Source: Marsupella aquatica (taxonomy: Eukaryota > Plantae > Marchantiophyta). From it: 64,000 nt of DNA. The translations under genes were made by a program, and so were the position numbers. This document shows, in pieces, positions 30,109 to 62,931 of the stretch (position 1 is the stretch's first letter; each line of letters starts with the position of its first letter). The stretch spans positions 992,860 to 1,056,859 of the forward strand of contig OZ316893.1 in the NCBI GenBank assembly GCA_973895155.1, given 5' to 3'. A model generated the notes under the pieces. The model was not told where the DNA came from and made no database searches. It was given only the letters and a program-made list of their open reading frames with translations.

Positions 30109-33100
30109 TCACCAGTAATCACCACAAGAACACACTCCATCTTTAAAATGGTGGAACCGATTTGCATCCCTCGCAATAATCTCGCGTCCGGTCACCTTAG
30201 AGATATACTTGGTTGCTGAGTGGCAATCTGAACACACCCGAAGGTTCTTACTTATACAAATTGGTCGTCCCCAAGGTAGGTGCATAAGTCCGTAAACAAT
30301 AGCCAACTTCTCACTATGAGAGCAAAGAGCTAGCTCTTTATCCTCCTCACTGATATCATGCAACACAAGCTGGGTATCCGGAATGTAGCCTTCAGCCTTC
30401 AGTTTTTCACTCAATTTATTCAGCTCAGTATATATCGCCTCTGCTTCTGGGTGAGATGTATCCCCCACAACAAATTGATGGACCGTGTTATCAACTTCAA
30501 TCCAGCTAATCCCTGGCTCCTTCCGAACACCTCTCTCTTGCATCATAGTGCGCACAGATGACACCTTCTCCCAATTCCCAGCTGCAGCATAGATATTGGA
30601 GAGCAGCACGTATGTAGAGGCCTTACCGGGTTCCAACTTGAACAGCTCGTTAGCGGCCAGTTCCCCCAGCTCCACGTTACCGTAAGTTCTACAAGCCCCA
30701 AGCAAGGCTGTCCAAGTTACATCATTTGGTTCGATCGGCATCTTACTGATGAACTGCTTTGCTTCCTCCAAGTGTCCCGCCCGCCCAAGAATATCCACCA
30801 TGAGGTTATAGTGCACAACAGTACGCTCGATACCATAGTCTTGCGTCATAGCTGAAAAGATTCTACGGCCATCATCAACAAGGCCTCCATGAGAACAGGC
30901 TGACAACACAGCTATGAATGACGTCTCGATGGGCTTCACATGGTTTACATTCATTTGTCTGAAAAGTTCCAGGGCTTCACGCCCATATCCGTGTTGTGCA
31001 AGTCCACCGATCATTGTGTTCCATGTGATTACATCGCGCTTCCCGAGTCTGTCAAAAACTTGTTGGGCGTCATCTATACTGCCACTTTTTGCATACATGT
31101 GAACGAGTGCATTGCCTACATGCAAATCCGACTCCAGTCCGGCTCTGCTAGCGTGGCCATGAACCTCCTTCACCCACTCCAAAGCCCCCGCACTTCCAGG
31201 TGCATTCAGAATACTCGCATAAGTGACTGCATTTGGTTCAAAGCCTTCCCGTCTCATTTGGAGAAACAATCGATATGCTTCATGCCCCAATCCATGTTGT
31301 GCAAGTCCTCCTATCATTACATTCCAAGTGACTACATCACGTTTCTCCATTCTGTCAAAAACCAGTCGGGCATCGTCTATACTGCCACTCTTTGCATACA
31401 TGTGAACGAGTGCAATGCCCACACGCAAATCCGACTCCAGTCCGGCTTCGCTAGCATGGCCATGAACCTCCTTCACCCACTCCAAAGCCCCCTCACTTGC
31501 AGATGCATTCAGAATACTCGCATAAGTGTATGCATCCGGTTCGAAGCCTTCCCGTCTCATTTCAAGAAACGTTCGATATGCTTCATGCCCACATCCATGT
31601 TGTGCAAGTCCCCCAATCATGGTATTCCATGTGACAACATCACGTTTCTCCAGTCTGTCGAAAACCAGTCGGGCATCATCTATACTGCCACTCTTTGTAT
31701 ACATGTGAACGAGTGAACTGCCCACCCGCAAATCCGACTCCAGTCCAGCTTTGCTAGCGTGGCCATGAACCTCCTTCACCCACTCCAAAGCCCCCATACT
31801 TGCAGATGCATTCAGGATGCTCACATAAGTGATTTCATTTGGTTCGAGGCCTTGGCGTCTCATTTCAACAAACATTCGATATGCTTCATGCCCACGTCCA
31901 TGTTGTGCAAGTCCTCCTATCATTACATTCCATGTGATTACATCGCGTTTCTCCATTCTGTCGAAAACCAGTCGGGCATCATCTATACTGCCACTCTTTG
32001 CATACATGTGAACGAGTGCAATGCCCACACGCAAATCCGAATCCCATCCGGCTTTGCTAGCATGGCCATGAACCTCCTTCACCCATTCCAAAGCCCCCGC
32101 ACTTGCAGATGCATTCAGAATACTCACATAAGTGAATGCATCTGGTTCGAAGCCTTCCCGTCTCATTTGGAGAAACACTCGATATGCTTCATGCCCACAT
32201 CCATGTTGTGCAAGTCCCCCAATCATGGTATTCCAAATGACAACATCACGTTTCTCCAGTCTGTCGAAAACCAGTCGGGCATCATCTATACTGCCACTCT
32301 TTGCATACATGTGAACGAGTGCAATGCCCACATGCAAATCCGACTCCAGTCCGGCTTTGCTAGCATGGCCATGAACCTCCTTCACCCATTCCAAAGCCCC
32401 CGCACTTGCAGATGCATTCAGAATACTCGCATAAGTGAATGTGTCTGGTTTGAAGCCTTCCCGTCTCATTTGAAGAAACACTCGATATGCTTCATGCCCA
32501 CATCCATGTTGGGCAAGTCCCCCAATCATGGTATTCCAGGTGACAACATCACGTTTCTCCAGTTGGTTGAAAACCAGTCGGGCATCATCTATACTGCCAC
32601 TCTTTGTATACATGTGAACGAGTGCACTGCCCACACGCAAATCCGACTCCAGTCCGGCTTTGCTAGCGTGGCCATGAACCTCCTTTACCCACTCCAAAGC
32701 CCCCGTACTTGCAGATGCATTCAGGATGCTCACATAAGTGATTTCATTTGGTTCGAAGCCTTGGCGTCTCATTTCAAGAAACATTCGATATGCTTCATGC
32801 CCAGATCCATGTTGTGCAAGTCCTCCTATCATTACATTCCATGTGACTCTATCGCGTTTCTCCATTCTGTCGAAAACCAGACGGGCATCATCTAGACTGC
32901 CACTCTTTGCATACATGTGAACGAGTGCATTGCCCACACGCAAATTCGACTCGAGTCCGGCTTTGCTAGCGTGGCCATGAACCTTCTTCACCCACTCCAA
33001 AGCCCCCGCACTTGCAGATGCATTTAGGATGCTCAGATAAGTGATTGCATCTGGTTTGAAGCCTTCCCTTCTCATTTGGACGAATAGTCCATATGCTTCC

Positions 33101-33885
33101 ACACCATCACCACGTTCTGCACATGCTCCAATCACAACATTCCATGTAATGACATTTCGATTGGTCAACTTTTCAAAAACTTTCCTTGCCTCGGTGATGC
33201 ACCCACATTTAGAGTACATCAGTACGAGAGCAGTCCCTACACGCACGTCCGATTCAAATCCGACCTGTCGAATATGCTCATGAATTTCTTTTCCGCATGC
33301 TAGAGCTAATGGGCTGGCACATCCTTTTAGGATGCTCAGATACGTGATCTCATTCGGCTGCACACCTTCTTGGCGCATTAGATTGAAAAGTTCGAGTGCA
33401 CATTCAGCATGATCACTGCTAGCGTATCCTGCAATCATGCTGGTCCAAGTAATAACACTCTTCTTCTCAATTTGATCAAAAACTCTACGTGCATCCGATA
33501 ATCCTCCGCATTTGATATACACATTCAACAGCGTGCTTACCACATATGGATTATTATCAATTCCACTCTCGATGATGCAACCATGAATTTGCTTGGCTGC
33601 TGAAAGATCTTTCTGATGCAAGAGCATTTGCAGAACTTTAACATAGGTGTACGAGTCTATAGCAATGCCTCGTTGTAGACGATCTTTCAAATCAGCAAGT
33701 ATTTCACTCGTGGTACCAGGAGCATGCATATGCCTACTGCCGTTCCGTTCTGCGGTGACTTGAGACCAATCTCTCGTGCAATGATCAACATCAGGTTGAA
33801 CTCTGCATTGAGTAAGCAAATTCGCCCTTGCCTTAACCCGTGCTGCAGTTGACCATCCATCCACCCAAAGTGCTATACTTGTCAT
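30109..33885 (-). CDS. PLS-class PPR-DYW protein (copy 3, 1258 aa)
   Basis: Intact intronless ORF. Seven ALEWVK-containing 101-aa units, KEPGISWIE, HSEKLA/CSDCH and terminal DYW. Confidence 0.95.
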   Translation of the reverse strand: MTSIALWVDGWSTAARVKARANLLTQCRVQPDVDHCTRDWSQVTAERNGSRHMHAPGTTSEILADLKDRLQRGIAIDSYTYVKVLQMLLHQKDLSAAKQIHGCIIESGIDNNPYVVSTLLNVYIKCGGLSDARRVFDQIEKKSVITWTSMIAGYASSDHAECALELFNLMRQEGVQPNEITYLSILKGCASPLALACGKEIHEHIRQVGFESDVRVGTALVLMYSKCGCITEARKVFEKLTNRNVITWNVVIGACAERGDGVEAYGLFVQMRREGFKPDAITYLSILNASASAGALEWVKKVHGHASKAGLESNLRVGNALVHMYAKSGSLDDARLVFDRMEKRDRVTWNVMIGGLAQHGSGHEAYRMFLEMRRQGFEPNEITYVSILNASASTGALEWVKEVHGHASKAGLESDLRVGSALVHMYTKSGSIDDARLVFNQLEKRDVVTWNTMIGGLAQHGCGHEAYRVFLQMRREGFKPDTFTYASILNASASAGALEWVKEVHGHASKAGLESDLHVGIALVHMYAKSGSIDDARLVFDRLEKRDVVIWNTMIGGLAQHGCGHEAYRVFLQMRREGFEPDAFTYVSILNASASAGALEWVKEVHGHASKAGWDSDLRVGIALVHMYAKSGSIDDARLVFDRMEKRDVITWNVMIGGLAQHGRGHEAYRMFVEMRRQGLEPNEITYVSILNASASMGALEWVKEVHGHASKAGLESDLRVGSSLVHMYTKSGSIDDARLVFDRLEKRDVVTWNTMIGGLAQHGCGHEAYRTFLEMRREGFEPDAYTYASILNASASEGALEWVKEVHGHASEAGLESDLRVGIALVHMYAKSGSIDDARLVFDRMEKRDVVTWNVMIGGLAQHGLGHEAYRLFLQMRREGFEPNAVTYASILNAPGSAGALEWVKEVHGHASRAGLESDLHVGNALVHMYAKSGSIDDAQQVFDRLGKRDVITWNTMIGGLAQHGYGREALELFRQMNVNHVKPIETSFIAVLSACSHGGLVDDGRRIFSAMTQDYGIERTVVHYNLMVDILGRAGHLEEAKQFISKMPIEPNDVTWTALLGACRTYGNVELGELAANELFKLEPGKASTYVLLSNIYAAAGNWEKVSSVRTMMQERGVRKEPGISWIEVDNTVHQFVVGDTSHPEAEAIYTELNKLSEKLKAEGYIPDTQLVLHDISEEDKELALCSHSEKLAIVYGLMHLPWGRPICISKNLRVCSDCHSATKYISKVTGREIIARDANRFHHFKDGVCSCGDYW

Positions 33886-35480
33886 CTTATACTCAGGTGC
33901 TCTGCGCTTCCTCTGTCAACCACACTGCCCAGGGTCAGACAGGGAAAGCCTGACTGATAAAAGAAAAAAGTCCAGGAGATTCCACGAGGTGCAATGAATT
34001 TGTACTTATTTCTCTAGGACTATATTTCACAATGATCTTTTTACAACGAATTGTTCTAAATTGATGACAGACCGGTTACTCTCTCGAGTCCTACGGCTAG
34101 CTTGCATGCTTACCTCCGTCCAAAGATGTGTTTTCTTGTCTCCCTGGCTCCGCTGTGATCTTTGGTACAGAAAACTTGCAAAAGTTATATGACGCCTTTT
34201 CAATTGAGAGTAACGGCTGTCTGTCAAGAATGCGATGATCTGAGAATAGACTTACTGAAATAATTGTCAAAGGCATATCCAGGTAGCTCAAGTATCAATA
34301 AGCTCGTTGATACTCCGGTATTTCAATGTAATTATAGGAAGGACAGAGTCAAGAGCCTATCGAATTGGCACTAAAAACCTTCATCAAGCAGTCACTGTTA
34401 TCCTTTGGTTCTGTATAGGATAGACTCTTAGGGCACCGTGACAGACGTTTATTTGTAAGTTGCCTACACTGTCCTTTCTATGCTATACACAAACCAACTC
34501 TCAGGTGTTTGACAAGAGACTACACCTCACAAATAAAGCCTAGTCAGCATTTGTAGATTGTCTCTATAGCATCCATTGTGATTAGGACATGAATGTGAAC
34601 GCGCCGCCCCCCGCACCCTGCCCCCCCCCCCCCCCCTCCCCCTCCCCCTCCCCGTGGTTCCTTGGAGATGAGAAAAGAATCAAACTTGAAGTTCAAGTCA
34701 AGCTTCATCACATAAGCCTCATAGCTGGAACAAGGGTTTTTGTTTACAAATAGGTAATCACAAGGTTGAATTGCTCTTCAGTCTCAATTACCTGAAAGCC
34801 TTGTACAATGGCTGATGCCAATACCAACCAAACCGGAAGATGAAGGATGAACTCTGCAAATCAAACGTCATTGTTGAGAATGTCTTCAAGCTCGTTTGGT
34901 CACATCATAATCCAACAAAATGGCATGCATACAAAATTAATCATACCTGGGTGTGGAGTTTTGCCTAAAGCGGTCCATATCCAAAATTTCCATCCAGTAA
35001 GCTTCGGTCCCGTTCGAGAGCTTAATAGTACAGTTGTGAGAAATACGATCTTACCTGTTTGACAAACGTTCAAATCAGTCTTAGTAGTGCAATCCTTGGA
35101 GAGTCCTCAAATCTCAAGTCTCATATTTCATCCCCCTTGGACTAAGGAAACAATATTCACTAGGCGAAGGCTCTGTTGGGAAAGCCTTACCCGGGCGAGG
35201 AATCTCAGCTCAACGCAACATTTGGAGGTACCCCTAGAAGCATAGCGGTAGCAGTATCGTCTCCAGGATCAAGTCCTCCGTCATTACGAATTAAGAATTG
35301 CTGTACTCTTCTAAGAATTATCACAGCTTTGGCATCCTGAGAGGAAAAAGTATGAGAATTTCAAATCCCAAAGCAACCACCACCATACCTGCACATTGTC
35401 ATTTGAAAAAGTTTGGCGCAAGTGCTCTTGTTTATCGCCCTCCACGAAAGAACCCTTTCCAACCGACTTGTCCTATATGC
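33886..35480 (-). repeat. Upstream region of copy 3, inverted paralog of 21530-23164
   Basis: For example, 35361-35465 is the diverged reverse complement of 21541-21648, and 34110-34225 matches 22826-22945 and 15180-15295. Confidence 0.85.
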
Positions 35481-37840: not shown

Positions 37841-40462
37841 CAGTCACAATAGTTAAACCTAACACCTATCAATCTCTACTCACTTGAACTATCACAAAGT
37901 CATGCCTCTCTGGGCCAGACACAAGTTTAATTAGTGATTCCTCTAGCTTTCCCCAACTCTTTAAAAAAAACCTCACCTATTTGGTTCAGTTGGGAGAAAA
38001 TGAAAAACTTTTTGTACACGGATAAGGTTGATTTGGGCTTCAACTTAGTCCCCCCATATATAATTATTAAAGGCAGAATTAATGGAGATTAATTAATTGC
38101 TACAAGGAATTTTCTTCATTTTACAAATTTGCAAGTCTCTAGTGGGACCTGTAAATATTCAAATAACATATTGAAAAATAAAATGAGGATTAAATCCATG
38201 TATTAGAAAATCAGGGTTCATTGGAAGAAATTGATAAACTTAAAATCTTACCAGTAATAAATAACCGACAGAAGGTAGAGTCGAGGTCTAGGATTCTAAA
38301 GTAAAGGTCCTAGACTCGGACTCTAGGGGCTTGCCACAACTTATGTGGATTCAACCAAAGACTGGAATGATGTTATGTATATATGATAAAATCATATCAT
38401 GCATGATTTGTCATCTGTATTAACATTCAAAGAATTGGCATCCAGGCTTGTAATTAAAAAACTTTATTATATACACAGTACTACCTAGAGCAGATTTATT
38501 AACACAACAATCTATAGCAAGTAATTCAATGACTTAGAGTGCCCATTGGTTATGTAAGTTTGATGTTATTTAACAAGTTAGAGCAAAATTGCATATTGAA
38601 ATAAGTTTGACTAATATGAAGAGGAGAGGAAAGAAAGAGTAGATTATTGATATATGATAGTAGCTACGTACTGTAGTCCAACACAACATTCAGACCCTTG
38701 GTACTCCTATGTACATACAGTTCATGTAACATTTTGCCTTGTCTCAAACACAAATAGTCATGTTTGGTTCTTTGTAGATCTAACAAACTGTTCTTGTTTG
38801 TGACCAGTAGCGGGACCAGTAGTGCTGATGTGACAACACGTGCTTCCATAGATTTTGAAAGGTCTGGAACTTTCCATCGGGTCCGTAAATAAGACAATAT
38901 AGCAAGAAGGGGTCCAGTCCTGCCACATGATCAATCTGGAAAATCCTTCAATAAGCAAAAAAATTCCAAAAATGCACAAACAAAATTCTGACAGTTGATC
39001 GAGGTTGTTTTCTAAAGTGGAGCCAGTTACTCTAAGGTGGGAGTAGTATGAGAGCAGGAGAGAAGTTGCTAAAAGACTTTTCTTACTATAAGCCTGTCTA
39101 AAAGACACAGCCCAGTGCCCTACTACACTTGCATTGCACTGAAGATATCAAATTGAGGCAAGGAAATACGAGTGCGATATATAGATTTTGAAATGCAGGT
39201 AGGAAAAGGAAATGTAAGTCAACAAAACCCTAAACAAAAGTTCTCCTTCCATGTTGTAGCACAATTTTTCTTTTATCTTCTTGTTCCCCTCCCTGCGCCC
39301 TCCCTTTCTCTCCTTTTGCTCTAGCTGGCTCCCTCCCACCTCCACTTTCTCCACTTTCTAGCCCTCCCCCCCCCAACCTGGCCTTTTCTTCCCTCCAACA
39401 TGATTTGAAGAATTAGTTCGTGGACCCCTTGGCTAATAAAATCAGGGGGAAGAGTTGATCTGAGCCGTCTCCATTTCTTATCTCCGGAAATCTCGTCCGT
39501 CCATCATAATGGCCAATCTATGGCTCAAAAGAAAGATCTCAAATAGATCTATGGATGGTTCTGTCAATTTTGCAAATGGGTTAATATTTTTCAAATGAAA
39601 AATTAAACAAATCCAAGCCTTCCTAGCCGTCAATTTTGTTGATTTTACGATCTTTGCCGTCCATTTTGTAATGCCTCTAGGAATCTTATTCATCCATGTT
39701 AGAAGGCAATCTAGGGTGCAATTAAAAGAAAGATCTCAATGAGATCTACGACTGGGTATTTTTTGTTTTGAGAATGAGTGAATAGTTTTGAGTATAAAAT
39801 TCGATGAACTTTCAAGATTCCAACCATTCCTCCTCCCCGATCCTGGGTTTCTATGTGCTCTTCCCAGCATTAATGGCCGTACAATACGAGAGGTCCTCAC
39901 ATAACGGGAGTTTCGGTTTAACAAGGAAGTTATAAAGTTAGTTATTAGTCATTATTTATTATATGAAAAATACTTTTTATAAATCTTTGAATTTAAGTTT
40001 TAAAATTATCACAGTATTCATTAAAACTGGAAATTTAAAAGTCCAGATTGTGATCCTCAAATTTACATTCTTGTCTCTAAAAAGTCCATTAATTTTTCTC
40101 CAAATAAACAATTTTTCAAGACTAAATATACACTCTTTTTGGTTTAAAATTACACTTTTGCACTCCAAATTTGATTTTAATCAATTAATCATAATACAGA
40201 AATTATTAATATTAATTGTATTTGAAATTAAATAGATAACTGACAAACATGTATCATTTGGTCAAAAACTCATGATTAAATTCAAAGTGAGATTAATCAT
40301 CTCATTTATCATAACATATATTCAAGGTTGGCTAGCCATAATGTCGATCCTACTCCAATGGTCAAGCTAGTGTAAAGTCCAAAGTAGTTCTATGACCTGT
40401 GAAATAGAAAAATGATTGCATGACTCCAATCTTGTGTCCTACAATGTACAGAAACATAATGA

Positions 40463-43400
40463 TTAATCATCTAAAATTTCAAATTCTATGCCTCCATGAA
40501 TATGTCTACATGACTGATTTGAACAAGTGAGTCGCTCTCCATTTGGGTCATATAGTCTGTCACGAGTGCAAGTGTCTTTGGGATAACGGTTTTTAAACTT
40601 AGAGGTGAGATCCCTAGTCTTTAGAACTTCCCAGACAAATCGGCGAGGATTTTCTCTGAAGGGACCTGCATAAGACTCGCCCAAACAGTTGTTGACCACA
40701 TCTTTCATATCATCTTCGGTCAGGTTCTCAAATGTAGGGTAGGATTGTACCATATCCCTCACTTCCCAACATATCTCATCTCCAGTGACATCCAAGATGG
40801 TATACTCAATCTTGGAACGCCAAATCTTACTTCCCCACTTATGGGAAAGTAAATCATAGATTGCAGCATTACTTTCACGGTCATCATTTATATTAACAAA
40901 TGACCAAAGTGGATTGTTGACAGATATATATTGTCGGATGTCATAAGCCTTCCACAATTTTCTAAGGAATGGCCAAAGTATCTCTGGTAGAAAAGTGTCA
41001 CTCTCGGCAATGTGTGAGAAGGGAGTTGGGAACAAACCACTATACTGTGGATTTGCAAAAGCCTTCACTGGAGAGTCATCAATAAGTAGAGTGTTTGTAT
41101 CATCATACTTGTCTCCAAAACGACTCCACACCACACGCAAATCCTTCAACATAATATTTGCTTTCCCATCTGCTACGTCCGGTCTTTTTATGCCAGTATC
41201 AAAAGCATCTTCTTGTGTGAAAACAAATTTAAATTGCCTCCGCTCCTCTTCTTTGAAAATCAAATTCATCATTTCATTAGTTCTTGGCCTCCCCGCACAA
41301 GTCCACAATGCGACATCAAAACCTTTGAAAGCCACCTCCAAAAATTGGTGCAACCTTGGCCTTTCCACGTACATGAAATTGAATCCACCCCGTCTCCCCC
41401 AATGCACACCCCGCACAGTTGTTGTAGATCTTAACGGTCCCGAGCTTTTTGTTTTGACGCAATCCCAACAAATTTTGTTCAGGTCCAAAATCAAGAGTTT
41501 TCTTCTTATATCAGAGTGCAATTTAGGAGTGAAATCTGCAAAGATCCAAATGAATCAAAATTATATCTAAAAGATATAAAAGAAGAACTTAGGGTCGAAC
41601 CTGGATCGACCCGACCTAATGGGGAAAACAAACATATCATTTTTGAATGTCAAAGCATTTTGATATATCAATGTAGAAGTACCTTGCTCAAATGCTTTGT
41701 CTTGGACCAGGGTACCGCTTGCTGAAGGTAGACCAATAATATCCTTCGATGGAAGAGATGCTATGACAAAACTCTGGTCTGTCCATATATGATTTCCAAA
41801 CATAATATTTTAGATTATTGTGAAAAATAGAAGAACGAAACCATAATATTAACCTCCACTACTAAATGACCCATATTCATCTATCATGTTATCACCTAGA
41901 TCACTTTGGATATCAGAATTGACGCCAACAGGAAGCTGCTCCACCAACGTTGGCGGCGCAAACACTGGACTCAATCTCAATTTGTCTATTATGTAATCAG
42001 GTTTGACCATTAACTTAGGCGCATCCTCCAACGTTTCTTTCAATCCAACTTTAGGTCCATTTCTCCAAATGAAATGAGTTGCATGACGGACTGTCTTCAT
42101 ATATCCTGTTCTACCTATCTCAGATCCAGACTTTTGAGACAAGCGTAATATTATGGGGCTTCCGCTTGACATCCTTGTGAAGACCAATTTATTCCCTGAC
42201 GAACAAAATTGAGGAGACTCGGAACAAGTTGAAGCACCTGCCTCTTCAGCTTCAACATTTGTTGTCTCTCCAAGTGGAAGGTTGTCTTCAATCGCTTCTG
42301 CAATACCAACTTGTAGGTCCGTGGTGGGTGTAGTGGCCCCAATATTCTGCCAACCTGCATCCAATGTGCACGATACCTGCGGTCTCTCGGGATGCAATTT
42401 TGATACTTCAGGGTTGAGAGGATTTGATGGAGGGTCGCTCTCAGGGCGACCCGACATCACTATGTCGAGTTGAGGTAGCCCTTCAACACCGTAGGTAGTA
42501 ATGCCAACCATTTCTGTTGCTCGAGCATCCCAATTTCCGCCAAAATCCTCCTCTACCATAGGACTTGAACCTCCATCATCATGCTGCAACTCACCATCCT
42601 CAAGGTCAACTCGCTGAGGGCCCGGTTGGGGGTTGTCCATAGGCCCGCAAAGAACACTTAGATGAGCTCTCCTAGGACCATGTACTCCCATCCGCTCTTT
42701 CATAAGGGAGGGAATCCTGTTGCACAAAACCCTTGCATATGCTTGGGTGAAATGGTGTTCTTGCAAAGTGTCTGAATAGACAAAACAATCTCGGTATGCC
42801 AACAAGGCCACCTTCAAAACCTGCCCTCCTGAAAAAAAATCGAGGACAGTCTCCCCCTCACCGGAAAAACATTCAATAATATTTTTGAGCATGTGTCGGG
42901 GCTTGGCATGCGGATTGACAAATCTTCCTCGACTTCCGACCATCTCAAACATTGGAGCTTGCCGCAATAAATCTGCCATATCAAATGCGGGAGACTGCTC
43001 CTCTGTCTCATTCTCTTTTCCCTTGCTTTTCTCTTGCTTGTCAGCCTTCACTTCAATATTGAAATCACAGTCAACATCGGGGTGAAAACTAAATTTTGAA
43101 TTGAACTCTGGCTTAAACAATTGATTCCAATCAAAATTGTCTTCACCTGTAATTCCAGCAAAAATGACCTGCTCAATCGCTCCTGTAAAAATTAAGCCCT
43201 GCGGATTTGGGCGATCTTCCCGATCATAACTCCCGTATTCAACATGGATGGCCAAATGCTTTTCATGTCCTAATTTCCTTAGGGCACTTAAGATGTTGGC
43301 TGGAAGTGGCCCTGGATGAGTAGTCATGACAACACAATGGTTGTATTCCTTGGCAACTCCACAATATATTGGAGCAATACAAAAATTTCCGAATCTGTCC

Positions 43401-46400
43401 ATTCATGTTGTCGTGCCCTACTAAAATCAACAATTGCAAGTGGACACATTGGCGTCGCCTCTTCCAATAACTCTGGCGTGGTTGTCTTCATTAGATTCTC
43501 ACTGAAGAACGTCAAGAAAGGCTCTGTTCATGTGCGCCCAACTCCACCAAATTGTTTGTAGTACAACCCGTCTAATCTCACCATTAGACTTTGAGGGAAA
43601 GCCTCTTTCACAATGTTCTTCCTTAATAAACTGCTAAGGTAGACCTCCCCAGCTGCTCTTCGCAATTTTGTCAGCTCAAGTTGAGATCCCAAGGCCGGCA
43701 TGATGTTGACCACCGAAGCCCACGATGTCCCCCCGGGAAAATTCTCCTTGTGCTTCTCAACAAAGTACTCAACAATGACTTGCTTCAATTTAGTCATTAC
43801 CTTGATGGTATGAGCCATATCTGGCATTGACACTAGATCCATCTTGTTGGAGGCATCTTTCTTGAGAAGTGCTTTCTTCTCATAAACCGCGGTCAATATA
43901 TCAATGATATCCTTAGAACTGATCTCCCCTTCAAAACATCTAAAAAGAGTTGGCGTGACCAGCTTTAGTGGCCGCGGCCCACCATACTCTCCTGCCCCGC
44001 CAGGGAGCTTCCCTGCCAACCAATCCCAACAAACAGTTTGCCATAAATGGAAAAGCTTATCCTCAGCAAAGAGCAACCAAAAAATGGCTTTCAAGCTCGA
44101 CTTTCCCATTGTTATCTTTGCGAGGGCAAACCAATCCTGCATTTACATTCATCCACCAAAAAACATGTTAGATGTTTAAACTTAGAAACTTCAACTTCTC
44201 TGCCTCGCCCCTAGAGCGAGGCGAAGAAAATGACAAAGCCATATGAAAATGGTTGGGGCAATCATTGTATTCATCATTCAATTTCATTTGGGTCACTCTA
44301 AGAGCGAGGCAAAATTAAACTACAGTTCCAACTAATGAAAATGTTTACCTGGTATTTCTGGTTGTCTGTACTTTGGTTTGTTCCAATTTCTGGACGCGGT
44401 GGTTTCCCACATTCATCAAATTGCCTTCTCGCATGAACAACTGTCTCTAGAAAACAAGACTTAAACTGCATGGTCTGATTTACTGCATTTGAAAGGCTCG
44501 AGTGCTCGACCAAAATTGCCCTTGGAGTGAGGTCTGATAAGATCCTCGCTTTCCGATATTGGAGTTTGCTAGCAAGATCAGTTAGCTTGGCATCCTTGTC
44601 TGCCCACCCTTGAATCCATTGTGCAGCCTTTGCGGAATGTTGCCCACTGATTGCAAGAAATTGTATCTCTTGCTTCTTAACACCAAACAAAAATTGCTTC
44701 CGATCGCGTGCGGTATTGTCAAAATGTAACAACTGCTTAGTGCGCTCTAGAAATGGAATCAAATCTGCAACATGTGGTTCCTGGCCAGGGTTTTTCATCA
44801 TTGATTTTGCTATCTCTAAGGCATGAGCCTGGTTGAACATCCGATACACAAAAACTGCAGTAGGCGGAATAATACTTTTAACCGGGATTTCAAAAACCTC
44901 CCTGATTCCAAAAGTGTAGTATTGCTCGATGTTCCGCAAAGCTTTCTGCCCCTCCAATACATCTCGTTCCTCTGGTGCATCTGTTGGGCATGTATCATCC
45001 TCCGGATCCAAGACCAACCTTGCTTTTGACGCTGACACGGGCTTTGATTTCCCAATCTTGGCCTTCTTCTTGGGCTTCTTGTCGGAGTCCTTATCTTTCT
45101 TCTTCAACGCCGCCTTTTTTCCTCTAGTACTTCCTTCACTCCTTGGCTCTCTTTGTTTTCTCTTCTTCTGTGTTTCAGCCGACGTCATTTCTTTGGCCTT
45201 CATCTTCATCTTCCCCTTACCTCGATGCTTTTCTTCCTTCTTCTTTTGAGTTGAAATCCACTTCATGCAAGCATCTTCGTCAAACTCATCAGAGAAAATA
45301 AAACTCTTATCAATTGCTTGCTCATATGAAAAGCGTGCTGTTTCAATCATCCTCTGGACAACCCATGTGTTAGGAAGATCTATAAGGTCCGGATGATCAT
45401 GCATGTACCGCTTCACAGAGAGGAATCCAAAGACAACATCAACCCCACTCAATTTGAATCTTCCATGCCTCTCAAGAACATCCTCTGCAGTGAACCCATC
45501 TGGAAGAAATCCCATTGAACAAATACTAGCCTCCGAGCGTGCTATCCACTCCACGTTGATAATTGACGAGTACATCTTGATTGGCAAGTAAAGTCTCATC
45601 CACTGAGATCTTTCTCTGGATTCAATAATGATTGTAACATTGCGGTTATCACTGCAATTTACAAGGACCACAGGGCCCAACGCAACTATCTTCTTGTCGT
45701 TCATTGTCTTAGCAGTGATTGCCTTGATACAAATCATCGACAAGTCATTCTCCATGATCCCTACTTCAAGTGCCCACGAAAATCCTGCCTTATCTTGTCC
45801 AGGGAAAATAAAGTCCTTGACATCCTCGGCCATAATATTTAACTCTGGGGATCCAAGTTGTTCTCCTGGAAAAACAAATTGAAACGACAAACATTAAAGC
45901 AAGAGATCTTTTGTGTTGCCTTGCCCCTAGAGCGAGCTGGAGACAAGGTCTGCATCAACAAACATGTGGGTTGGGTCGCTCCTGGAGCGACCCTAGGAAA
46001 TCTTAAATCAAGGTCCAACCAACAACAAATTTGGGTCGCTCCTGGAGCGACCCTAGGAAAACTTAAATCAAGGTCCAACCGACAAATAAGTTGGGTCGCT
46101 CCAAGAGCGACCCTAGGAAAACTTAAATCAAGGTCCAACCAACAACAAAGTTGGGTCGCTCCTGGAGCGACCCTAGGAAAACTTAAATCAACGTCCAACC
46201 AACAACAAAGTTGGGTCGCTCCTGGAGCGACCCTAGGAAAACTTAAATCAACGTCCAACCAACAACAAAGTTGGGTCGCTCCTGGAGCGACCCTAGGAAA
46301 ACTTAAATCAACATCCAACCAATAACAACGACAAATCTTAGGCAAGATAGGGTCGCTCTAAGAGCGACCCTTCAAAGACTAACTTGCATCAATTGTTGAA

Positions 46401-46579
46401 TCATACTTACGTGGAACTGTGATATGAAATCCTCTTGAGGCGGCCAAAGCGGATTCCACCGACATCTTTAGTAAAGTGTCTTGAGAATCATACTCAAAGA
46501 TTTTACTAGAATCAAAGTTCAGGGACTGCCCAGAACTAGAAGTGCTAGTAGAATCATCAGAACTAGAGGAAGTAGCCAT
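40463..46579 (-). pseudogene. 5-exon ~1,720-codon fusion gene: ParB-like domain, amino-methyltransferase-like domain, FCP1/SCP(NIF) HAD phosphatase-like domain, Cys/His tail
   Basis: Exons 46579-46384, 45865-44349, 44136-41854, 41778-41683, 41535-40463 join by GT-AG introns in matching phases (1,0,1,1). Motifs: IPVKSI..RMFNQAHALEIAKSM..FLAISGQHSAKA (ParB-like); NPHAKPRHMLKNIIECFSGEGETVLDFFSGG (MTase motif X/I); KLLILDLN..RPRLHQFL..VALWT..NTLLIDDSPVKA (NIF). One TGA at 43528-43530 and one frameshift near 43350. Confidence 0.78.
45971..46371. repeat. 6 x 60-bp tandem array, each unit with palindrome GGGTCGCTCC-T-GGAGCGACCC, plus a 7th palindrome at 46349-46371
   Basis: Units start at 45971, 46031, 46091, 46151, 46211 and 46271. 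The third has the variant CGCTCCAAGAGCG. The array lies entirely within predicted intron 45866-46383. Confidence 0.95.
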
Positions 46580-47626
46580 TGAAAAATGCCTCACAAACGT
46601 TTAGATGACACGTGGCAGCCTAGTATACAAGAACGCCTATATAGCTAGACCACACCACGGAGCGAGGCTACAGAGCAAGGAAAAAAATCTACTATGAGCA
46701 AGGCAAAATCAACAGAGCGAGGCAAGAAAATCTACTATGAGCGAGGCAAGAGGGAGGAGGGAAACCAGGGCAGCCGGGCAAGAAGACAATGAAGGAGGAG
46801 ATGGATGCAAGAAGACAATGAGGCAAATGAGGTAATGTCTTTGCCTTTTGCCTTCCTATACCCTCACTGCCACGGCCGATCCTACGCCACGGCCGATCGT
46901 ACGCGACCTTACGCAACCCAGCCACTTGCTCCCTTCCACGCGCCTGTGAACTCGCAACCCTCATAATGACCTAGCTGTACGGGTATCCATAGATTTTGAA
47001 AAATGATGCACGGTCGTACGGGTGTCCACAGAATGCCGATCAGAGTAATCAGACTTTCGGCCTCTCGATGTTGTGAACCCCTTCAGGACAAACTTGGCTA
47101 AAGCTTGCTCACAAATGGTATAAAGCTCTATAGTTCCAATCATTTCTCTCTTTTGTATGGCGCGTGCGTTTCTGGTCATTGCTCACTCTCGGTCTCGCCC
47201 TTCGGCCCTTGTCTATCTTGCTTCTGTTCGGTGACTGATTCGACTGACTTGGACATTTATGGTTACAAGAGTTCGTGCAAGGAAAGTCCTGTTTCAAGTA
47301 CATATTGCATTAGTTTTGGTGTCCTTGGTTGGCGACACGTCTTCTATAGTCCTTAAGAGAGGTATTACTTCATCTACCATTCTCTTAATTTCTTCTCTAT
47401 GATATCCACCAAATATTTGGCCCTAGCTTTATCTTAATATATGGACCTAACTAAGCCCTAGATAATGTAGGGTTCCTAACGACACACTCGTCTACCCACA
47501 CGTCTACACACTTCAATGGTCTAATTCAGCTTAATCATTCCCCTGATTTATTCATTTCCATATTTTCTCTTTTCCTTCACAATTCTTGCTTCTCCAGGAT
47601 TGTGCTCGTCTTTTCTTGCTCTCCCG

Positions 47627-48056
47627 TTGCCTCGCTCCAAGAGCGTCATGCCCTTGCCTCGCTCCAAGAGCGTCACACACTTACCTTTCATCAGGAGCAT
47701 CCTGCCCTTTCTTTTCTCCAAGGGCATCCGCTCTCCATTTCCTCGCCATCAGAGCGTCCCACAACCGCCTCGCCCCTAGAGCGACCCTCCATCGCCTAGC
47801 CCCTAGAGTGGCCCTCATTCACCTTGCCCCTAGAGTGTCTCTCCATCGCCTCGCCCCTAGAGCGACCCTCATTCACCTTGCCCCTAGAGCGTCCCTCCAT
47901 CGCCTCGCCTCTAGAGCGACCCTCCATCTCCTCGCCCCTAGAGCGACCCTCCATCGCCTGCCCCTAGAGCGACCCTCCATCGCCTCGCCCCTAGAGCGTC
48001 CCTCAATCGCCTCGCCCCTAGAGCGTCGCAACCTTGCCTCGCTCCAAGAGCGTCCT
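47627..48056. repeat. ~27-bp tandem array (cgcctcgcccctagagcgaccctccat and variants)
   Basis: About 11 consecutive units at 47766-48030, plus CGCTCCAAGAGCG copies at ~47632, ~47660 and ~48040. Located upstream of the transposase ATG. Confidence 0.92.
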
Positions 48057-48234
48057 TGACCTTAGAATCCTGTTGTGTAAAGCCAATACACATAAACTCC
48101 CAAATATTTTTTTCCTTTAAATAGAATTCAAATGTTTAGATCTAATATTGTAATATCTAGAGTAGTGCTTATCAGTATGCACATCAGCTGAACAATTTTT
48201 AAATGTTTTTGGATGCAGAGATTCTTTCGCTACC

Positions 48235-51200
48235 ATGAGTAAATTTATGCGAGGGGATGAAGTTTCATTGATAATTGATGGTTTTGAAGTGGCAATTGGG
48301 ACCATCCAAAAGGTTGATCCCAAAGACACTATACACAATATTTGTCTTGGGAAAAATTGAATTGGGGTCCTTATCGAGAGGTGTCTTGAAACATCTTGTC
48401 CACTACCATTTCCATCCAAAACATCATCGAGCCTAGGTGATGCAGTTGACTCGTGTGTGATCTGGGATTCTTCCTTGGCATATTTGAGGTCTTCAACATT
48501 GCCGAAAAGAACCGCTGTGGATGGTGTTCCTACTCCAGTGGACGGGGATGAAGGATGTTTCGAAATGGATGTTGGTGGTAAAGGAGGCAACCTTGCTGAA
48601 GGAGAGGAGGTTGAGATGTTCATTTTAGATGAACTTGTATCAAAAGGAGTTGTCTTCAATACCAATCCAATGGACACTTGTCATAGTGAACGACTCGGTG
48701 TTGGTCGTGTCAGTATACAAATATCAGAGGTTGTTCAGGGAAATAGAAAACTACCATATCCGCATCTTGGAGCTGACACAGTGCAAGAGGCAATGCAGAC
48801 TTGGGTAATGTGGGATGTTGCTGATGTTTCAAGAAAAGGCTCTATTCGAGGTTCTGGCATGTTTGTTGGTGCAAACCCGGGTGCAAACCTGTTTAAGGAT
48901 CTTCCATTGAAAGATTTTACAATGCGTTCCAACTGGATGGCAGAGGAAGTTGACTTGTATGATGTTTCTCGTTGTCGTAAGGTTGCGACAGGAGTTATCA
49001 CAGTTCCTTTTGAAGCAGGTGCTGTTGATGATGAACTTCTTGGTCCAGAGCATGTGGGTGTAGCTGTTGTGAATATCAACGATCCCGCATTATTTCCAAA
49101 TATCCGTGCTGGTACTCCAGGTTTGGTGAGGTGGGAAATCAAATCTTTGTTGTTGATTTCATCTCAAATATTTCTCGGGGATATCCTTGAGAAAGGTTCA
49201 CATGTGTGGATAGAATCGGGTCGAAATGAGAGCGACCCGGATTTGGATGGTGATGGGAAACCTCCAAAAAGACCTTATAATTTCATTAGAAGGACCAAAG
49301 TGGATCTGGAGGAGAAAAAAAATAAAATTTGCAATCAAGGGCGCTTTTGAAAATCACCGAGGAGTCCATTGATTCCATCCAAAGAGAAGGTTGTTGCAGG
49401 TTAAAGTGTTGCTTGAACATGCCAAGAGAGGACTTGGAGGCAATGAGGAGGGAATTTCATGGAATGTCAAGTGACAACAAAACAAGTCATATCTTCAATC
49501 TTTTTGGGTGTAGAGAAGACCAAGTCAAGAGAAAAGGATTTTTTGTTCTAAAGGGACGTGTGGTTTGTAAGGATGCGTTCATAAAAATGCATGGGTTTAG
49601 TACGGCAAAGTATTATGATTACAAAAATCAGTACGAAGCTGGGTGCACAATTGGTTTCCATGGAAATCAAGGGCAACATAAGACACGATCAAGCACCTTG
49701 CATGCTCGTGCATTGTTGGAGTCCATTTTAATCCAAAATGGAGAACCAATGCCACATCTTCCCTATGGTGGGTCCAACGGCACCGATACTGTCAAATATC
49801 GACTCCCATCATGTTTCACTAAGAAGGAGATTTTTCAAGAGGTATTTGCAAAGATGGAATTGGACGGCTATGCTAAGGTTACTGAAGTTACCATGTACAA
49901 CATCTGGAAAAATTCTTTTGATAATTTTGACTTTCACAAGGGCAGTGCATTTGCCAAGTGCACATTTTGCACTGAGTTCAAAGATCAATTGATGCGGGAG
50001 AAGAGAAAAAAAGAGCGTGCAGAGATTGAAGAGAAAAGAGCACGACATCTTCGTGAACAAATGTCAAGGAGATATGTTTACTATGCTCATAGGGTTCTTG
50101 CAAAGAAGGATCCTCAAAACTATCTTTGCATTATTCATGATAAGATGGACCAAGCCAAGACTTGGATCCCCAGATTGGTCCCCACTCCAAAATCTCTCTC
50201 TGGTAGTGGTCAACCTCTGCCCATTGCCCTTACTGGGATGTTAACCCATGGAAGGGATCCAGGAGTGTATGCACACTTTAGTTTGACTGGCCTTTGGCCT
50301 GGAGATGCAGACTTCACTGTGACATCTTTGGCCAAATGCCTTCAAGATTTGGAGGATTACACTGGAGACAAAACGGGAGACATGCTTGAAGCTTTCAATT
50401 GGAACGCAACTAGGCCAATATTTCAGTCTCTTTTGGACTTTGAAGCATTTCAAGCGGGTTACTTGGAACCCAAAAATGTTTCAATTCTCAAGTTTCAAGG
50501 CCTTGATGACGGTCAGGAGAGCCAAAAAACCAGCACAACAGATGCTGGTTCTAGAGTTGATCCTGAGACTACGAGCTCTTTCAAGCCCTTACCAAGGCAC
50601 CTAACACTGCAGATGGACAATTCAGGAAAAGATAATAAAAATCAATATGTGATGGCATTTTGCAGCGAGCTTGTTAGCAGGGGGTGTTTGAAACTGTGCA
50701 AATGTCATTCCTCATAGTTGGCCACACCCATGAGGATGTGGATGCACTATTTCTCAAGTATCCAAACAGGTCAGGTACAAAGAGGTTGCTACCCTCCTTG
50801 CGTTGATGGCTGAGGTTTGGGAGTGTGAAAGCATCCATCCTGTACGTACCACGATTGATTCAGGAGGTTGCATCTTACAAGCACTATTTGAAGGCTTTCC
50901 AAGTGAAAGAGATTGAAGGTCACTCAAAACCAATGGCATTTCTATTCTCCATGAGGGATAATGTGCCAGTGTATCAATATAAAGCACATGTCAAACAACC
51001 TTGGCTTCCAGCAACAGGGAGGTCAATTTGGAGAACTGATCTCATCACAAACACGCTCATTTTACCGGAGGGCCAACCATTTGCAAAACCTATATCGGGG
51101 GAGGTACAAAAGAAAGTCGAGGAAATCATCCCATTCCTTAATCGTTACATTGATTTCTTGAGGAAAAGTTGCAAGGATGAGACCTCTACAGCATACCGCG

Positions 51201-52018
51201 AGAGATTTCCTTTGGTGAAATATTGGGAGAGGCTTGTTATGGCACTCTCTGAGGCACTTACAATAGAAGGGGAGGGAGAAAGACAATTGTCATTGACAAC
51301 TGATTTCTGGCCAAAGACTAACCATGGCACAGGTTACAAGGTGATTTTGGGGACCTCTCAACCTTCAAGTGAACCTACTCAAAATTCAGAGATGATGGAC
51401 CTTCAAAATGAGTACATGGAAGAGATGGAAGGTCAAGCTGCACCCTTCGTTGGTGCACAAGAAGAGCGAGAACTTGCACGTTGGATTTCCCTACAAGATA
51501 TTCAAGAGGGTCACTTTGTGTTTTTACGTCCAGAGGATGAATGGGAGCAAAAAAATGGCAAAGGGCGTTTCTGGTTAGTTCGAGCTTTGGGTGGTGTGGA
51601 TCCAAACCATGAGGTTTCTTCACTAGATTTGCAATTTAGTGAAGGGTCTTCTTCAAGGTTTTCTAAGAGCATTCACCTAAGTAGCATTCCTAAGTGGTAT
51701 GCTCCTATGTTCCAAGTGCAATGGTGGAGGCCTAAACATGGTAAGCATGATGCAAAGGATGATGTTCGATACGAACGTTGCTTTCAGACCACTAAGACTT
51801 GGGAGCTAGATCCTGGGTTTAACACTATCACTCAAAGTTGGCAATTTGCAAATTCTGCAATGTATGGATTTAAGTCAGGTGCCAAAGAACAAAATATTAT
51901 GGATAGAGGTTTGACAATTCCCAAGAATGTTTTGAAAACTCTCAAAACTTACATGGAAGGTATTGATGAGAGTGATAGAGTGGTCACAAGTGTCCACTAT
52001 GTAATGACTTGTAGGTAG
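48235..52018 (+). pseudogene. DDE transposase (Sola/DUF7869-like) with three N-terminal Tnp1/En-Spm-like domains; disrupted
   Basis: ATG 48235 is in frame with ORF 48457-49350, with a TGA at 48358. Cys clusters CCRLKCC, VCKDAF and KCTFC. Catalytic-type motifs IIHDKMDQ, LQMDNSGKDNKN and (frameshifted, ~50700-50750) SFLIVGHTHEDVDALF. Frameshifts at ~49330, ~50680, ~50752 and ~50845. Confidence 0.8.
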
Positions 52019-52697
52019 GAGGGTCAAGTTAATTTCCATGCATTTGTCTAAAGTAAGTGAGAGAACAAGGCTTGCAATCAAATACTCTATGATCTTTCTT
52101 AGTTATTGAATGGACTTTTTCATAAAAATTGTTATTTTTGTCTTAGTACATATATTTCTAGAAAATGATGGCAGTTCTAAGTTACTTGGATGTCATCCTA
52201 GTTTGAATATAAGATATTTAACTTGTCTAGCATTTCATTGTTGCTTAGATAATGATCCTATCCAAGCTAGATGCTTTGAGTATAGATGCTATCCAAGCTT
52301 ATGTGTTATTACACACGTTCTATCTATTTTCAACCAAATGAACACTTTTTATCACCCAAATGTTTTTTAATATTATCCAAATTAATATTTTCTTTGCCCA
52401 AATGTCTATTTTTTTGCCCCAAATTTATAATTCATGATGCTTAAATTTTCATTTTTCATCCTTCAAATTTACAATTCTTATGCCTAAAAGTGTGTTTTTA
52501 AATGCCCAAATTTCCAAATCTTCTTTATAATTCCACTTTTAATGAATATAGTGATAATTGGAAATGTAACTAAAACGGTTACATATAGTGATAGTTTTAA
52601 CCGTCTTGCTCTTTGCATTTCCAATGTTTTTACTTTTATTTTTATGGCACAGCGTCCCAAAGTTTACACCCAAATTGACACAAACACGAATATCAAT

Positions 52698-53028
52698 CTA
52701 TTCATTAAAAGTGAATTATTATTCAATTTGTGAACATTTGGGCAATAGAAAGTGTACATTTGGCTTTCAAAAAGTAAACATTTGGGCAAGAAATAAAGGT
52801 GATGGCCATCAGACATACCACCATGTTCATCTTTTATAAATGAACTAGGATGAGACTCCTTCTAGTAAAGATCATTTTTTCTCTCTCAAGTTTACAATTG
52901 ACTATTTAGGTGTAGAGTATTGTACTATAATATACCTTTTGGGGTTAAAAAGTGTACATTTAGAGACCAAAAAGTGTACATTTCAAGGCCTAAAAGTGAA
53001 CAAAATAAAATACACTTTTAATGAATAG
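52698..53028. mobile_element. MITE with 16-bp TIR CTATTCATTAAAAGTG (copy 1)
   Basis: Perfect inverted ends. A second homologous copy lies at 62932-63240. Confidence 0.8.
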
Positions 53029-53313
53029 GGTGATGAATGGAAACTATAAGTTTGATTCACAAAACCGCCGAGTCTTGTTTGTTGCGGTTGTTGTTGACGT
53101 GGCACGTTGTGGTGCCAGGAATTTTGGAAGGGACCTCTAGTGGGGTCCGTAAAAAAAATTGGAGGAAAAAGCAGAATTAATAACCCAAAGGAACAAGAGA
53201 ATTCCACTTTAGAAAATAAATAGCAAACTTAGGCCAAATAGTGCCCCCCCAACAAAAAAAAAGTCTCTAACTTACACGATGTACTTCTTATGTAGGGGCT
53301 CCAAGTATTGGTC

Positions 53314-53651
53314 TGTTAGATATTGCTCTAGTCTTGTGACTCATCATGAGCTAACCACAGTTATTCTAACTCGGGTTAGGACTTAGCTAATATTAGTGGT
53401 AGTGTTGTTGTGCATATAGCCAGGGCTGATGCTAGACCCTAGGTGGAACTTAGGCTCATTGTTACAGAGCTAGTTGAGAGCTTGTGTTGTGGATACTTGG
53501 TATGGCCGGTCGGCCTAGAGTGCAGTAAAGCTCTTGTGTGTTCCCGTGGACGTAGCCTCATGTGGAGGTGAATCACGTATCTCTCTGTGTCGACTCTTGT
53601 GCGTTGGATGGTTCATGGGCTTGCAGTTACGAATGTCGTCTATGCTCAACA
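53314..53651 (+). mobile_element. Copia solo LTR with 5-bp TSD TGGTC
   Basis: TGTT...AACA ends, TGGTC at 53309-53313 and 53652-53656, and a 3' half highly similar to LTR 2699-3043. Confidence 0.92.
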
Positions 53652-56156: not shown

Positions 56157-57461
56157 CTACCTGGCAATGCTTTTCAACACCAATACTTCGACTGTCACAC
56201 CAGGCCCGAATGCCACACAAATTCCCCACTCAGCTCCTTGCCCAGATGTCGTCGAGTTGTTCTGAACAGACAGGTTCCGCACTTGGTCAAGCACAAACAG
56301 AACAGTGGCACCAGACATGTTACCATAGTTATAAAGCACATCCCTGGTGGCCTTCAGCTTCTCGGGCTTCAAACTTAGTGACTTCTCCATTTCATCGAGG
56401 ATGGCCCGACCTCCGGGGTGTACTGCCCAGAAGATGTCGTTCCAGCCAGGAGACCCGGTCATTTGAGATTGAGCAGCATTGAAGATGGGCAGCGTATTCT
56501 TTGAAATGATGCCGGGAACTTCCTTCACTAAATGATACATGAGGCCAGCTTCTGTGAGGCGCCCTTTGATTGCACCATCACTTTCGGGAAGGATAGTTTC
56601 TCCTGACCAGTGGATTTCGTAGAGTGGCCTCTCGACCTCGAGCGGGTCCGAGCCGATGACTAGTGCTGAGGATCCGTCGCCAAACGTTGCAGACCCAACC
56701 AAGTTGTCCACATGCTGCTCAGTAGGGGCCCTAAAGGTGAGACACGTCGTGAGTTCACTCACCACCGTCAGAACTCGTGCGCCCTTGTTATTCTCAGCCA
56801 AATCTTTAGCTACTCGCAGAACTGTGGCTCCTCCGAAGCACCCTTGCTGATACAGCATAGTTCGCTTGACATTGGGATTCAACCCAAGGAGTCTGGTGAG
56901 AGTGAGATCTGCTCCAGGCATGTTGACACCACTGGTAGCTGCCAATACAACGTGAGTAATCTGCTCTCTGGGTTGGCCCCATTCTTCGAGAGCCTCCTCC
57001 GCTGCCTTTGCTGCAAGCCTGGGTACCTCTTTAATGGCAATGTCCTGGCGAACGTCGAGGGTATCACAATTTAGAATCATTTCTCTCACCTCAATAGATA
57101 GAAGACTCAAAAACGTTGTTCGAGTGATTTCACACATTTGAAATCTAGGAGATAACAAAGATTGAAAATTAAGAGCCATGAAGTACACCTGGCGAACATC
57201 GAGAGAAGCATCCTTGTACGTACACATCGCTGGATTGGCCTTCAGCACCTCCTCGGTGCAATGAAAGTACCTCTGGTTGATCCCTGCGTTTTTGCAGATA
57301 CGGGCGAACTTCGCCTTGAGCGCAGTCTTCTCATTGCAATTCGTGATGTTGAAGAAGAAATCCGCGTACTCGCTCTGAGGATGAGCGGTGGGAGGAACAG
57401 CTTTGCCAATGGCGAACACGGTGGCCGGCCCTTCCGCTCTCTGATGCCGATACGCAGCCAT
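56157..57461 (-). CDS. Type III polyketide synthase, chalcone synthase family; 2 exons (57461-57189, 57044-56157)
   Basis: RAEGPATV, catalytic triad contexts MLYQQGCFGG / WAVHPGG / YGNMS, FGDG and AFGPG. A 144-bp GT-AG intron spans 57188-57045. Confidence 0.93.
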   Translation of the reverse strand: MAAYRHQRAEGPATVFAIGKAVPPTAHPQSEYADFFFNITNCNEKTALKAKFARICKNAGINQRYFHCTEEVLKANPAMCTYKDASLDVRQVYFMALNFQSLLSPRFQMCEITRTTFLSLLSIEVREMILNCDTLDVRQDIAIKEVPRLAAKAAEEALEEWGQPREQITHVVLAATSGVNMPGADLTLTRLLGLNPNVKRTMLYQQGCFGGATVLRVAKDLAENNKGARVLTVVSELTTCLTFRAPTEQHVDNLVGSATFGDGSSALVIGSDPLEVERPLYEIHWSGETILPESDGAIKGRLTEAGLMYHLVKEVPGIISKNTLPIFNAAQSQMTGSPGWNDIFWAVHPGGRAILDEMEKSLSLKPEKLKATRDVLYNYGNMSGATVLFVLDQVRNLSVQNNSTTSGQGAEWGICVAFGPGVTVEVLVLKSIAR

Positions 57462-62730: not shown

Positions 62731-62931
62731 AGTGAACTTATTTTCATGCGGATGAGATTCCACCTCAACTCGTCATTTAGAGTAAATCCAGCCCGAATTT
62801 TCCCATTAGATGCTTACGATCTGCCAGATGAAGCAACGGAGGGTAGTCGGCCATGATGCGATAGAAGGATTGGCGTTTGTCCTTCAAGTCCAGCCTACTT
62901 TCTCTTGGTCAAATTAGGTCTTGCGGTCAAC

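Follow-up and report, generated by a model that had tools for sequence, protein, structure and literature searches.

The 64,000-nucleotide stretch of the liverwort Marsupella aquatica analyzed here (assembly GCA_973895155.1, contig OZ316893.1, forward-strand positions 992,860 to 1,056,859; hereafter the window, in whose own coordinates all features are given) contains a DNA transposon of 12,548 bp at positions 40008-52555, an identification that we hold to be close to certain. The element carries two divergent genes, each with Pfam matches: a Sola-like transposase of the DUF7869 type on the plus strand and, on the minus strand, a predicted cargo gene combining a ParB fold, a methyltransferase fold and an FCP1-like fold. 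We read the element as a decayed copy of a young, Sola-like cut-and-paste transposon whose cargo protein, disarmed in its catalytic motifs, may bind palindromes lying within the element and thereby keep the element expressed; taken as a whole, this reading is given slightly less than an even chance, and its parts are graded separately below. An earlier note made from the sequence had described a DNA transposon with two divergent genes, and this description holds: the unit is multi-copy, has terminal inverted repeats (TIRs) and a target-site duplication (TSD), and encloses both genes.

The left TIR (40008-40035, plus strand) and the right TIR (52528-52555, minus strand) are imperfect, with 23 of 28 bases paired between the ends; they are AT-rich and start with ATCAC. 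Outside them lies the TSD, AATT, at 40004-40007 and 52556-52559. Contigs from public sequencing runs (X1-X5), from which the copies were also judged, bear on the same ends. High-depth contigs of X1 and X2 stop at 52555, different sequences precede 40008 in other contigs and mark other insertion sites, and all four runs examined (X1, X2, X3 and X5) contain the joint 40003->52556, in which four letters fit either side and which represents the empty site. In X1 this joint has a depth of 2,228 vs 14-22 at unique flanks, so the interrupted sequence is itself a repeat, present at about 39917-40007 and from 52560 onward, and flanks before 39917 vary among the public contigs. With TIRs, TSD and empty site in hand, the extent of 39900-52610 given in the earlier note can be corrected: the element stands, its proposed ends do not, and the ~108 and ~55 bases beyond the true ends are part of the interrupted repeat.

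The transposon family is young and multi-copy. Contigs of X1 over the cargo gene, the 5' part of the transposase gene and the right end have depths of 286-349 vs 14-22 on the flanks (13-25x, depth being a rough proxy for copy number only), and these high-depth contigs differ from the window by 35 substitutions in 7,756 bases (~0.45%); the assessment of age and copy number follows from these two values, and X2 and X3 have a similar depth excess over the element. The window copy itself is decayed, as had been proposed, with one stop and one frameshift in the cargo gene and one stop and several frameshifts in the transposase gene. Neither of the two cargo lesions, a stop at 43530 and a frameshift near 43333, occurs in the X1 and X4 majority contigs, which leave the cargo reading frame open across 40030-44420; the decay over this interval is therefore private to the window copy. 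At the transposase breaks near 50680, 50750 and 50841 other contigs differ, among the matches listed, and we infer an intact transposase in other copies.

Homologs of the cargo point in the same direction. A search of 1.84 billion representatives returned 94 matches, and the 20 matching proteins that were looked up comprised 18 cargo proteins and 2 transposases. The cargo proteins came from 11 Riccia sorocarpa loci scattered over chromosomes, from Calypogeia fissa (six, in two clusters) and from Diphasiastrum (one); their dispersal in liverworts counts in favour of a transposon-borne gene. The ParB-like cargo family thus extends to a lycophyte (P0096, Diphasiastrum complanatum). A metagenome scan with alignment A3 retained two loci out of 82 candidate stretches, and at 1.6 and 1.2 kb neither is long enough to test linkage; in viral contigs the scan returned 0 of 16, and a phage tblastn search with P0152 returned only three weak methyltransferase matches (E 0.7-0.9). 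Alternatively, the cargo could be a single-copy host gene that happens to neighbour the transposase, or a Pack-type fragment of recent capture, and in the incomplete Riccia sample its linkage to a transposase is not shown. Such an origin, which in its single-copy form the earlier note had named as fatal to its own proposal, is extremely improbable and largely refuted: the cargo lies inside the TIRs, is missing from the empty site, has 13-25x the depth of the flanks, and has dispersed, multi-copy homologs in liverworts.

The transposase gene runs on the plus strand from an ATG at 48235 to a stop at 52018, interrupted by a stop at 48358 and by frameshifts near 49330, 50680, 50750 and 50841, and matches Pfam DUF7869 (E 1.3e-15), which we take to be equivalent to Sola. 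Its motifs are CxxC, HDKMD, QMDN..KDNKN and GHTHEDVD, the last of which, used in the earlier note to type the protein as a DDE transposase, is indeed encoded (50720-50743, in a frame reached past a frameshift). CxxC, HDKMD, QxDN..KDNKN and GHTHED(V/I)D are kept across homologs in alignment A5. Thirteen homologs are longer and 39 are of similar length, many of them from Riccia sorocarpa, and full-length relatives have ~1,000-1,330 amino acids. From these features the element is probably a member of Sola1: it combines a DDD/DDE core (HDKMD, QMDN, GHTHED(V/I)D) with TIRs and with a 4-bp TSD, the latter read as AATT from a single insertion, a related miniature inverted-repeat transposable element (MITE) having GAAT. 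The available text of one study describes an AWWT target preference as a hallmark of Sola1 (PMC3845634). The label "Sola-like" as used here draws on TSD, TIRs, motifs and background knowledge of the group. Over the transposase core (49840-51690), the summed depth at 85% likeness is several times that of the cargo, and further related transposase families are therefore present in these runs.

The cargo gene is predicted on the minus strand as five exons joined by in-phase GT-AG introns, encoding 1,712 amino acids with a one-base lesion discounted; the predicted domain order is PH-like, ParB fold, beta-class N4/N6-methyltransferase fold and FCP1-like. Predicted exon 1 (46411-46579) begins with an ATG at 46579, and exon 2 (44349-45865) encodes the PH-like domain, a basic linker and a ParB/Srx fold with an SGQHS box. 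Exon 3 (41854-44136), which contains the stop and the frameshift given above, encodes a helical region, a beta-class amino-methyltransferase fold, an acidic linker and a conserved C-terminal segment; exon 4 (41683-41778) is a 96-nt linker between in-phase GT-AG introns, and exon 5 (40463-41535) encodes an FCP1/NIF-like HAD fold with DLNK at motif I vs DxDxT. Introns 1 and 2 occupy 45866-46410 and 44137-44348. No methionine lies ahead of motif I in exon 5, and upstream splicing is therefore favoured; we infer the five-exon structure, including the fused FCP1-like exon, from the sequence.

Profile and structural comparisons were used to characterize these domains. Pfam matches in the cargo are NIF (E 9.8e-16) and N6_N4_Mtase (E 2.1e-5, only just under the curated cut-off); exon 5, which contains the NIF HAD domain, also matches UBLCP1 (E 3.4e-8). 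The ParB part has no Pfam match and aligns with phage ParB at E 1.8e-4. In the case of exon 2, an AlphaFold2 model (mean predicted local distance difference test, pLDDT, 83.7) is closest to PadC (Z 8.2, root-mean-square deviation, rmsd, 3.3, 98 aligned residues) and KorB (Z 8.1), and all of the top eight fold-match rows are ParB/Srx-fold proteins; matches to PH/PTB folds are weak (Z up to 4.8), and Foldseek lists Noc/ParB in its top rows, none reaching E 0.001. A conserved helical region follows the ParB fold and is not part of the folded model. For exon 3, the model of homolog P0110 (pLDDT 60.7) adopts a beta-class amino-methyltransferase fold with the permuted Rossmann order of that class, matching CcrM (Z 16.0, rmsd 4.3 over 230 residues), then M.RsrI (E 4.4e-7), M.PvuII and bdelloid N4CMT. 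The ESM Atlas provided leads only: N6_N4_Mtase clusters at 0.91 for the methyltransferase part and, for the ParB exon, the fungal DUF3723 family at 0.91 with a low recognition score. A PDB profile search with alignment A6 gave nothing meaningful. All three folds of the spliced ParB/methyltransferase/phosphatase-like fusion envisaged in the earlier note have thus been matched, its splicing being predicted.

All three enzyme folds look disarmed in the cargo family. The cargo has DFSR at motif IV, DFFSGG at motif I, GQHS in the ParB box and DLN(K) in the FCP1-like domain. Eight of the eight sequences reaching motif IV depart from (D/S/N)PP(Y/F/W), reading DFSR, DFGR, DFTR, DLAR, DFSR, DFAR, DLIA and DFGK. 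Profile-profile alignment with two phage methyltransferases covers the C-terminal half only, and the placement of motif IV relies on the order of fold elements and on the matching LAIVD strand, where a phage methyltransferase has LAIVDPPY and the cargo family LAIVDFSR. The motif I for binding of S-adenosylmethionine (SAM) reads FSG-G, with a one-residue gap vs M.RsrI, and departs from FxGxG. A ParB box was found in 61 of the 94 matches, as SGQHS in 44 of them; the final arginine of the GxxR box, which ParB clamps need for binding of cytidine triphosphate (CTP), occurs in 0/61, being replaced by Ser, Thr or Leu in every box. FCP1/SCP phosphatases carry a catalytic DxDx(T/V), from which DLNKI departs. 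Majority contigs of X1 and X4 retain DFSR and DLNK. Judged by these motifs, the cargo does not look like a methylase, CTPase or phosphatase of the canonical kind, canonical methylase activity in particular being absent with good probability; it is most likely a catalytically inactive protein that regulates its own element by binding DNA at specific sites. The earlier note had called the cargo chromatin-modifying and able to modulate RNA polymerase II transcription. An active chromatin modifier appears doubtful because the catalytic motifs of all three folds are non-canonical, the PP(Y/F/W) motif missing from all eight sequences and DFSR kept by the majority, and dephosphorylation of the polymerase C-terminal domain is doubtful because the FCP1-like domain is without DxDxT.

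The methyltransferase fold also admits a reading in which the cargo would be an active, non-canonical amino-methyltransferase that writes N4-methylcytosine (4mC) or N6-methyladenine (6mA) on the CG-containing palindromes of the element and so marks its own DNA. The beta-class fold is complete, and the aspartate of motif IV together with the KP and DFFSGG segments is kept in homologs. In the available text of the respective sources, 4mC/6mA is predicted for a similar gene of Ectocarpus (PMC12477816), and 4mC occurs in a liverwort (10.1101/2021.02.12.428880). The PPY of motif IV is nevertheless missing in 8/8 sequences, the SAM loop has its one-residue gap, and the family majority retains DFSR, which makes self-marking by methylation improbable.

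The candidate target of the cargo is a palindrome in which two 9-bp arms flank a 3-bp spacer, with TCGCYC-NNN-GAGCGW at its core, giving a 21-bp candidate site. The element contains 17 strict copies, or 22 with at most one mismatch, and the other 51,452 bases of the window contain none at that threshold; 100 Markov simulations put the chance expectation at 0.03 copies on average. The earlier count of about 20 or more copies in non-coding parts is thus confirmed, 21 of the 22 sites being non-coding and one coding. Eight lie in intron 1 (45918-46370), six of these in a 60-bp tandem array, two in intron 2 (44202-44310), and 11 between the genes, upstream of the transposase (47629-48056), in a 27-bp tandem array. 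The total is raised by tandem duplication, and only ~7 contexts are independent of it. Spacers of length 3 number 22, vs 0-4 at other lengths, and the spacer sequence varies (five types). The outer arms mix freely, being paired in 10/22 at two positions; a reading as RNA hairpins is weaker, since the outer arms mix, and protein half-sites fit better. The palindrome is unrelated in sequence to the AT-rich TIRs and has no copies at the termini. A scan of prokaryote genomes yielded 65 loci with a single palindrome and no arrays. CpG observed/expected ratios (cargo 0.58, intergenic 0.80, transposase 0.40, copia 0.39) are biased by the arrays and were not used.

A palindrome with a fixed spacer suits a dimeric ParB-type binder, and the evidence tilts modestly towards binding of these sites by the cargo as a dimer. 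With motif arrays specific to the element, the self-recognising transposon proposed in the earlier note appears to be the best reading. The palindromes might instead be bound by extra domains of the transposase or by a host factor, or be neutral repeats, with an unrelated role for the cargo. Most copies arose from tandem duplication, the relative L001 is without the motif in the same intron, and transposases can be sequence-specific activators, as described in the available text of 10.64898/2026.08.24.746577. The ~7 separate contexts, the fixed spacer suited to a dimeric ParB-type protein and the lack of copies in 51 kb of flank speak against this explanation and make it quite unlikely.

If the cargo does bind, it could also work as an autorepressor or as a cofactor of transposition, in the manner of KorB, MURB or, in transpososome assembly, TnpA. 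The arrays directly adjoin both transcription starts, and the repressor KorB is among the top fold matches (Z 8.1). TnpA sites are subterminal; unlike these, the palindrome is missing from the termini. MURB binds MURA according to the available text of PMC12973397, which favours a cofactor, whereas the spread of the palindrome as non-coding tandem repeats resembles that of VANC targets as described in the accessible part of PMC5735166. We consider a repressor or cofactor role rather unlikely, and given binding, promotion of expression seems somewhat more probable than repression.

In the preferred reading of a disarmed, palindrome-binding cargo, cleavage by the transposase would take place at the TIRs, as is established for DDE elements. 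A cargo dimer would bind the palindromes in the introns and promoters of the element, and the bound protein would likely keep the element transcribed against host silencing, as VANC does for VANDALs. A more inclusive version combines all parts into a second plant system against silencing, of independent evolutionary origin and run by bryophyte Sola elements: a ParB module derived from prokaryotes would load at parS-like palindromes and spread along the element, the methyltransferase fold, though dead, would serve to shield or read cytosines, the equally dead FCP1 fold would act as a tether for RNA polymerase II, and protein and motif would co-evolve per family in mosses, liverworts and lycophytes. 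This combination of ParB and dead folds is unlikely in its entirety.

Several observations weigh against the preferred reading. The two genes are never covered together by one contig, and the window may itself have been derived from X1. None of the 11 Riccia cargo locus tags adjoins any of 37 sampled DUF7869 tags, the nearest being 19 apart; the tag sample is incomplete, and linkage there is neither shown nor excluded. The ParB-type helix-turn-helix after the ParB fold is a likeness by eye only, with none found in profile searches, and the homologs P0108, P0109 and P0152 end at the end of exon 3, the FCP1-like fusion not being seen there. L001, a 46%-identical relative, shares the intron and carries no such palindrome in it. 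In addition, the motif IV aspartate, KP and DFFSGG are conserved across bryophytes, and some activity or SAM binding therefore remains conceivable.

The surroundings of the element include a MITE of 343 bp at 52692-53034, outside the element, with TIRs related to those of the element, a GAAT duplication and an empty-site joint 52687->53035. A second MITE lies at about 62926-63246, its ends and TSD not being clean; both are 320-340 bp long, are 81% alike over 340 bases and have TIRs like those of the main element. Very high-depth repeats occupy about 39440-39900 and about 53340-53651, and the many different flanks after 53651 look like the end of a long terminal repeat. The window further contains a cluster of three long genes for PPR-E-DYW RNA-editing factors (12100-15099, 23129-26338 and 30109-33915) with 303-bp internal repeats, a chalcone/stilbene-synthase-like gene (56157-57506, minus strand) and a broken copia-type reverse-transcriptase region (RVT_2, 228-2507). 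The PPR-DYW genes and the chalcone-synthase-like gene, like the bryophyte homologs of the element's genes, are in keeping with a land plant of bryophyte type.

The cargo domains can be compared with several known protein families. With the beta-class amino-methyltransferases M.RsrI, CcrM, M.PvuII, bdelloid N4CMT and Marchantia DN4MT1, the cargo shares the fold and the permuted motif order; those enzymes keep (D/S)PPY and FxGxG, whereas the cargo family has a DF(S/G/T/A)R-type motif IV and FSGG. In Marchantia DN4MT1, motif IV is TSPPY in the available text of 10.1101/2021.02.12.428880. The CTP-dependent clamps ParB, Noc and KorB share the ParB/Srx fold and palindromic candidate sites, and differ in the GxxR-box arginine that the cargo has replaced in 61/61 boxes. 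VANC proteins of VANDAL elements are likewise accessory proteins borne by transposons, and their motifs amass as non-coding tandem repeats in the available part of PMC5735166, as do 21 of 22 sites here. They differ, as far as that source was available, in a MULE (Mutator-like element) transposase, an unrelated protein, non-palindromic motifs and an experimentally shown activity, the present system being known from sequence. Pfam and profile searches gave no MULE match in the window element, whose transposase is DUF7869.

Among transposons, Sola clusters of 10-11 kb are listed for Ceratodon (two), Rhytidiadelphus and Cibotium (PMC12973397, Table S2). In the rows seen, they resemble the Marsupella element in being large and recently active, with 4-bp TSDs and 26-32-bp TIRs, and differ in TIRs that begin GGGTG or AACAC vs ATCAC here and in that no cargo is described. 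A literature search that did not extend to most subscription journals found no paper mentioning DUF7869 and no land-plant description of such a cargo, although elements of this kind may appear in the supplementary files of PMC12973397, PMC12477816 and the Bostrychia preprint. The earlier note did not recognize the architecture as a described family; on this point it is superseded, since the available texts describe it for Ectocarpus (PMC12477816) and, as ParB with arrays, for red algae (10.1101/2025.02.11.637652). In the red algae, including Bostrychia, Plavaka ParB accessory genes lie beside tandem inverted-repeat arrays, and self-binding is hypothesized in the accessible part of that preprint. 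The PAG2/PAG3 genes described there share with the cargo a ParB-like protein adjoining inverted-repeat arrays; they differ in the EnSpm/Plavaka transposase, in the fusion of ParB to a 2-oxoglutarate oxygenase and in a separate methylase, present as a SET fusion.

A close counterpart by description is Sola1-1_Ec32 of Ectocarpus, a giant Sola-type element of 21.5 kb in which a 1,104-aa ParB and N4C/N6A methylase gene lies opposite the transposase, and for which the available text proposes self-modification and self-binding by the accessory protein (PMC12477816). That element belongs to a brown alga, and methylation is predicted by its authors in the same text. The Marsupella element resides in a land plant, is 12.5 kb long, and encodes a predicted 1,712-aa protein that further includes PH-like and FCP1-like domains and whose catalytic motifs are non-canonical. 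It appears to operate on the same lines as the ParB-methylase accessory transposons of algae; its novelty lies in being hosted by a land plant, in the extra domains and in the loss of catalytic motifs. The Marsupella family is thus a good land-plant test case for the self-recognition hypothesis raised for algal ParB proteins, offering exact ends, a young family, an open majority cargo frame, a 21-bp candidate site and transformable bryophyte models. The three lost catalytic motifs shift the published expectation, suggesting that the accessory proteins of such transposons may be binders or scaffolds rather than writers of DNA marks.

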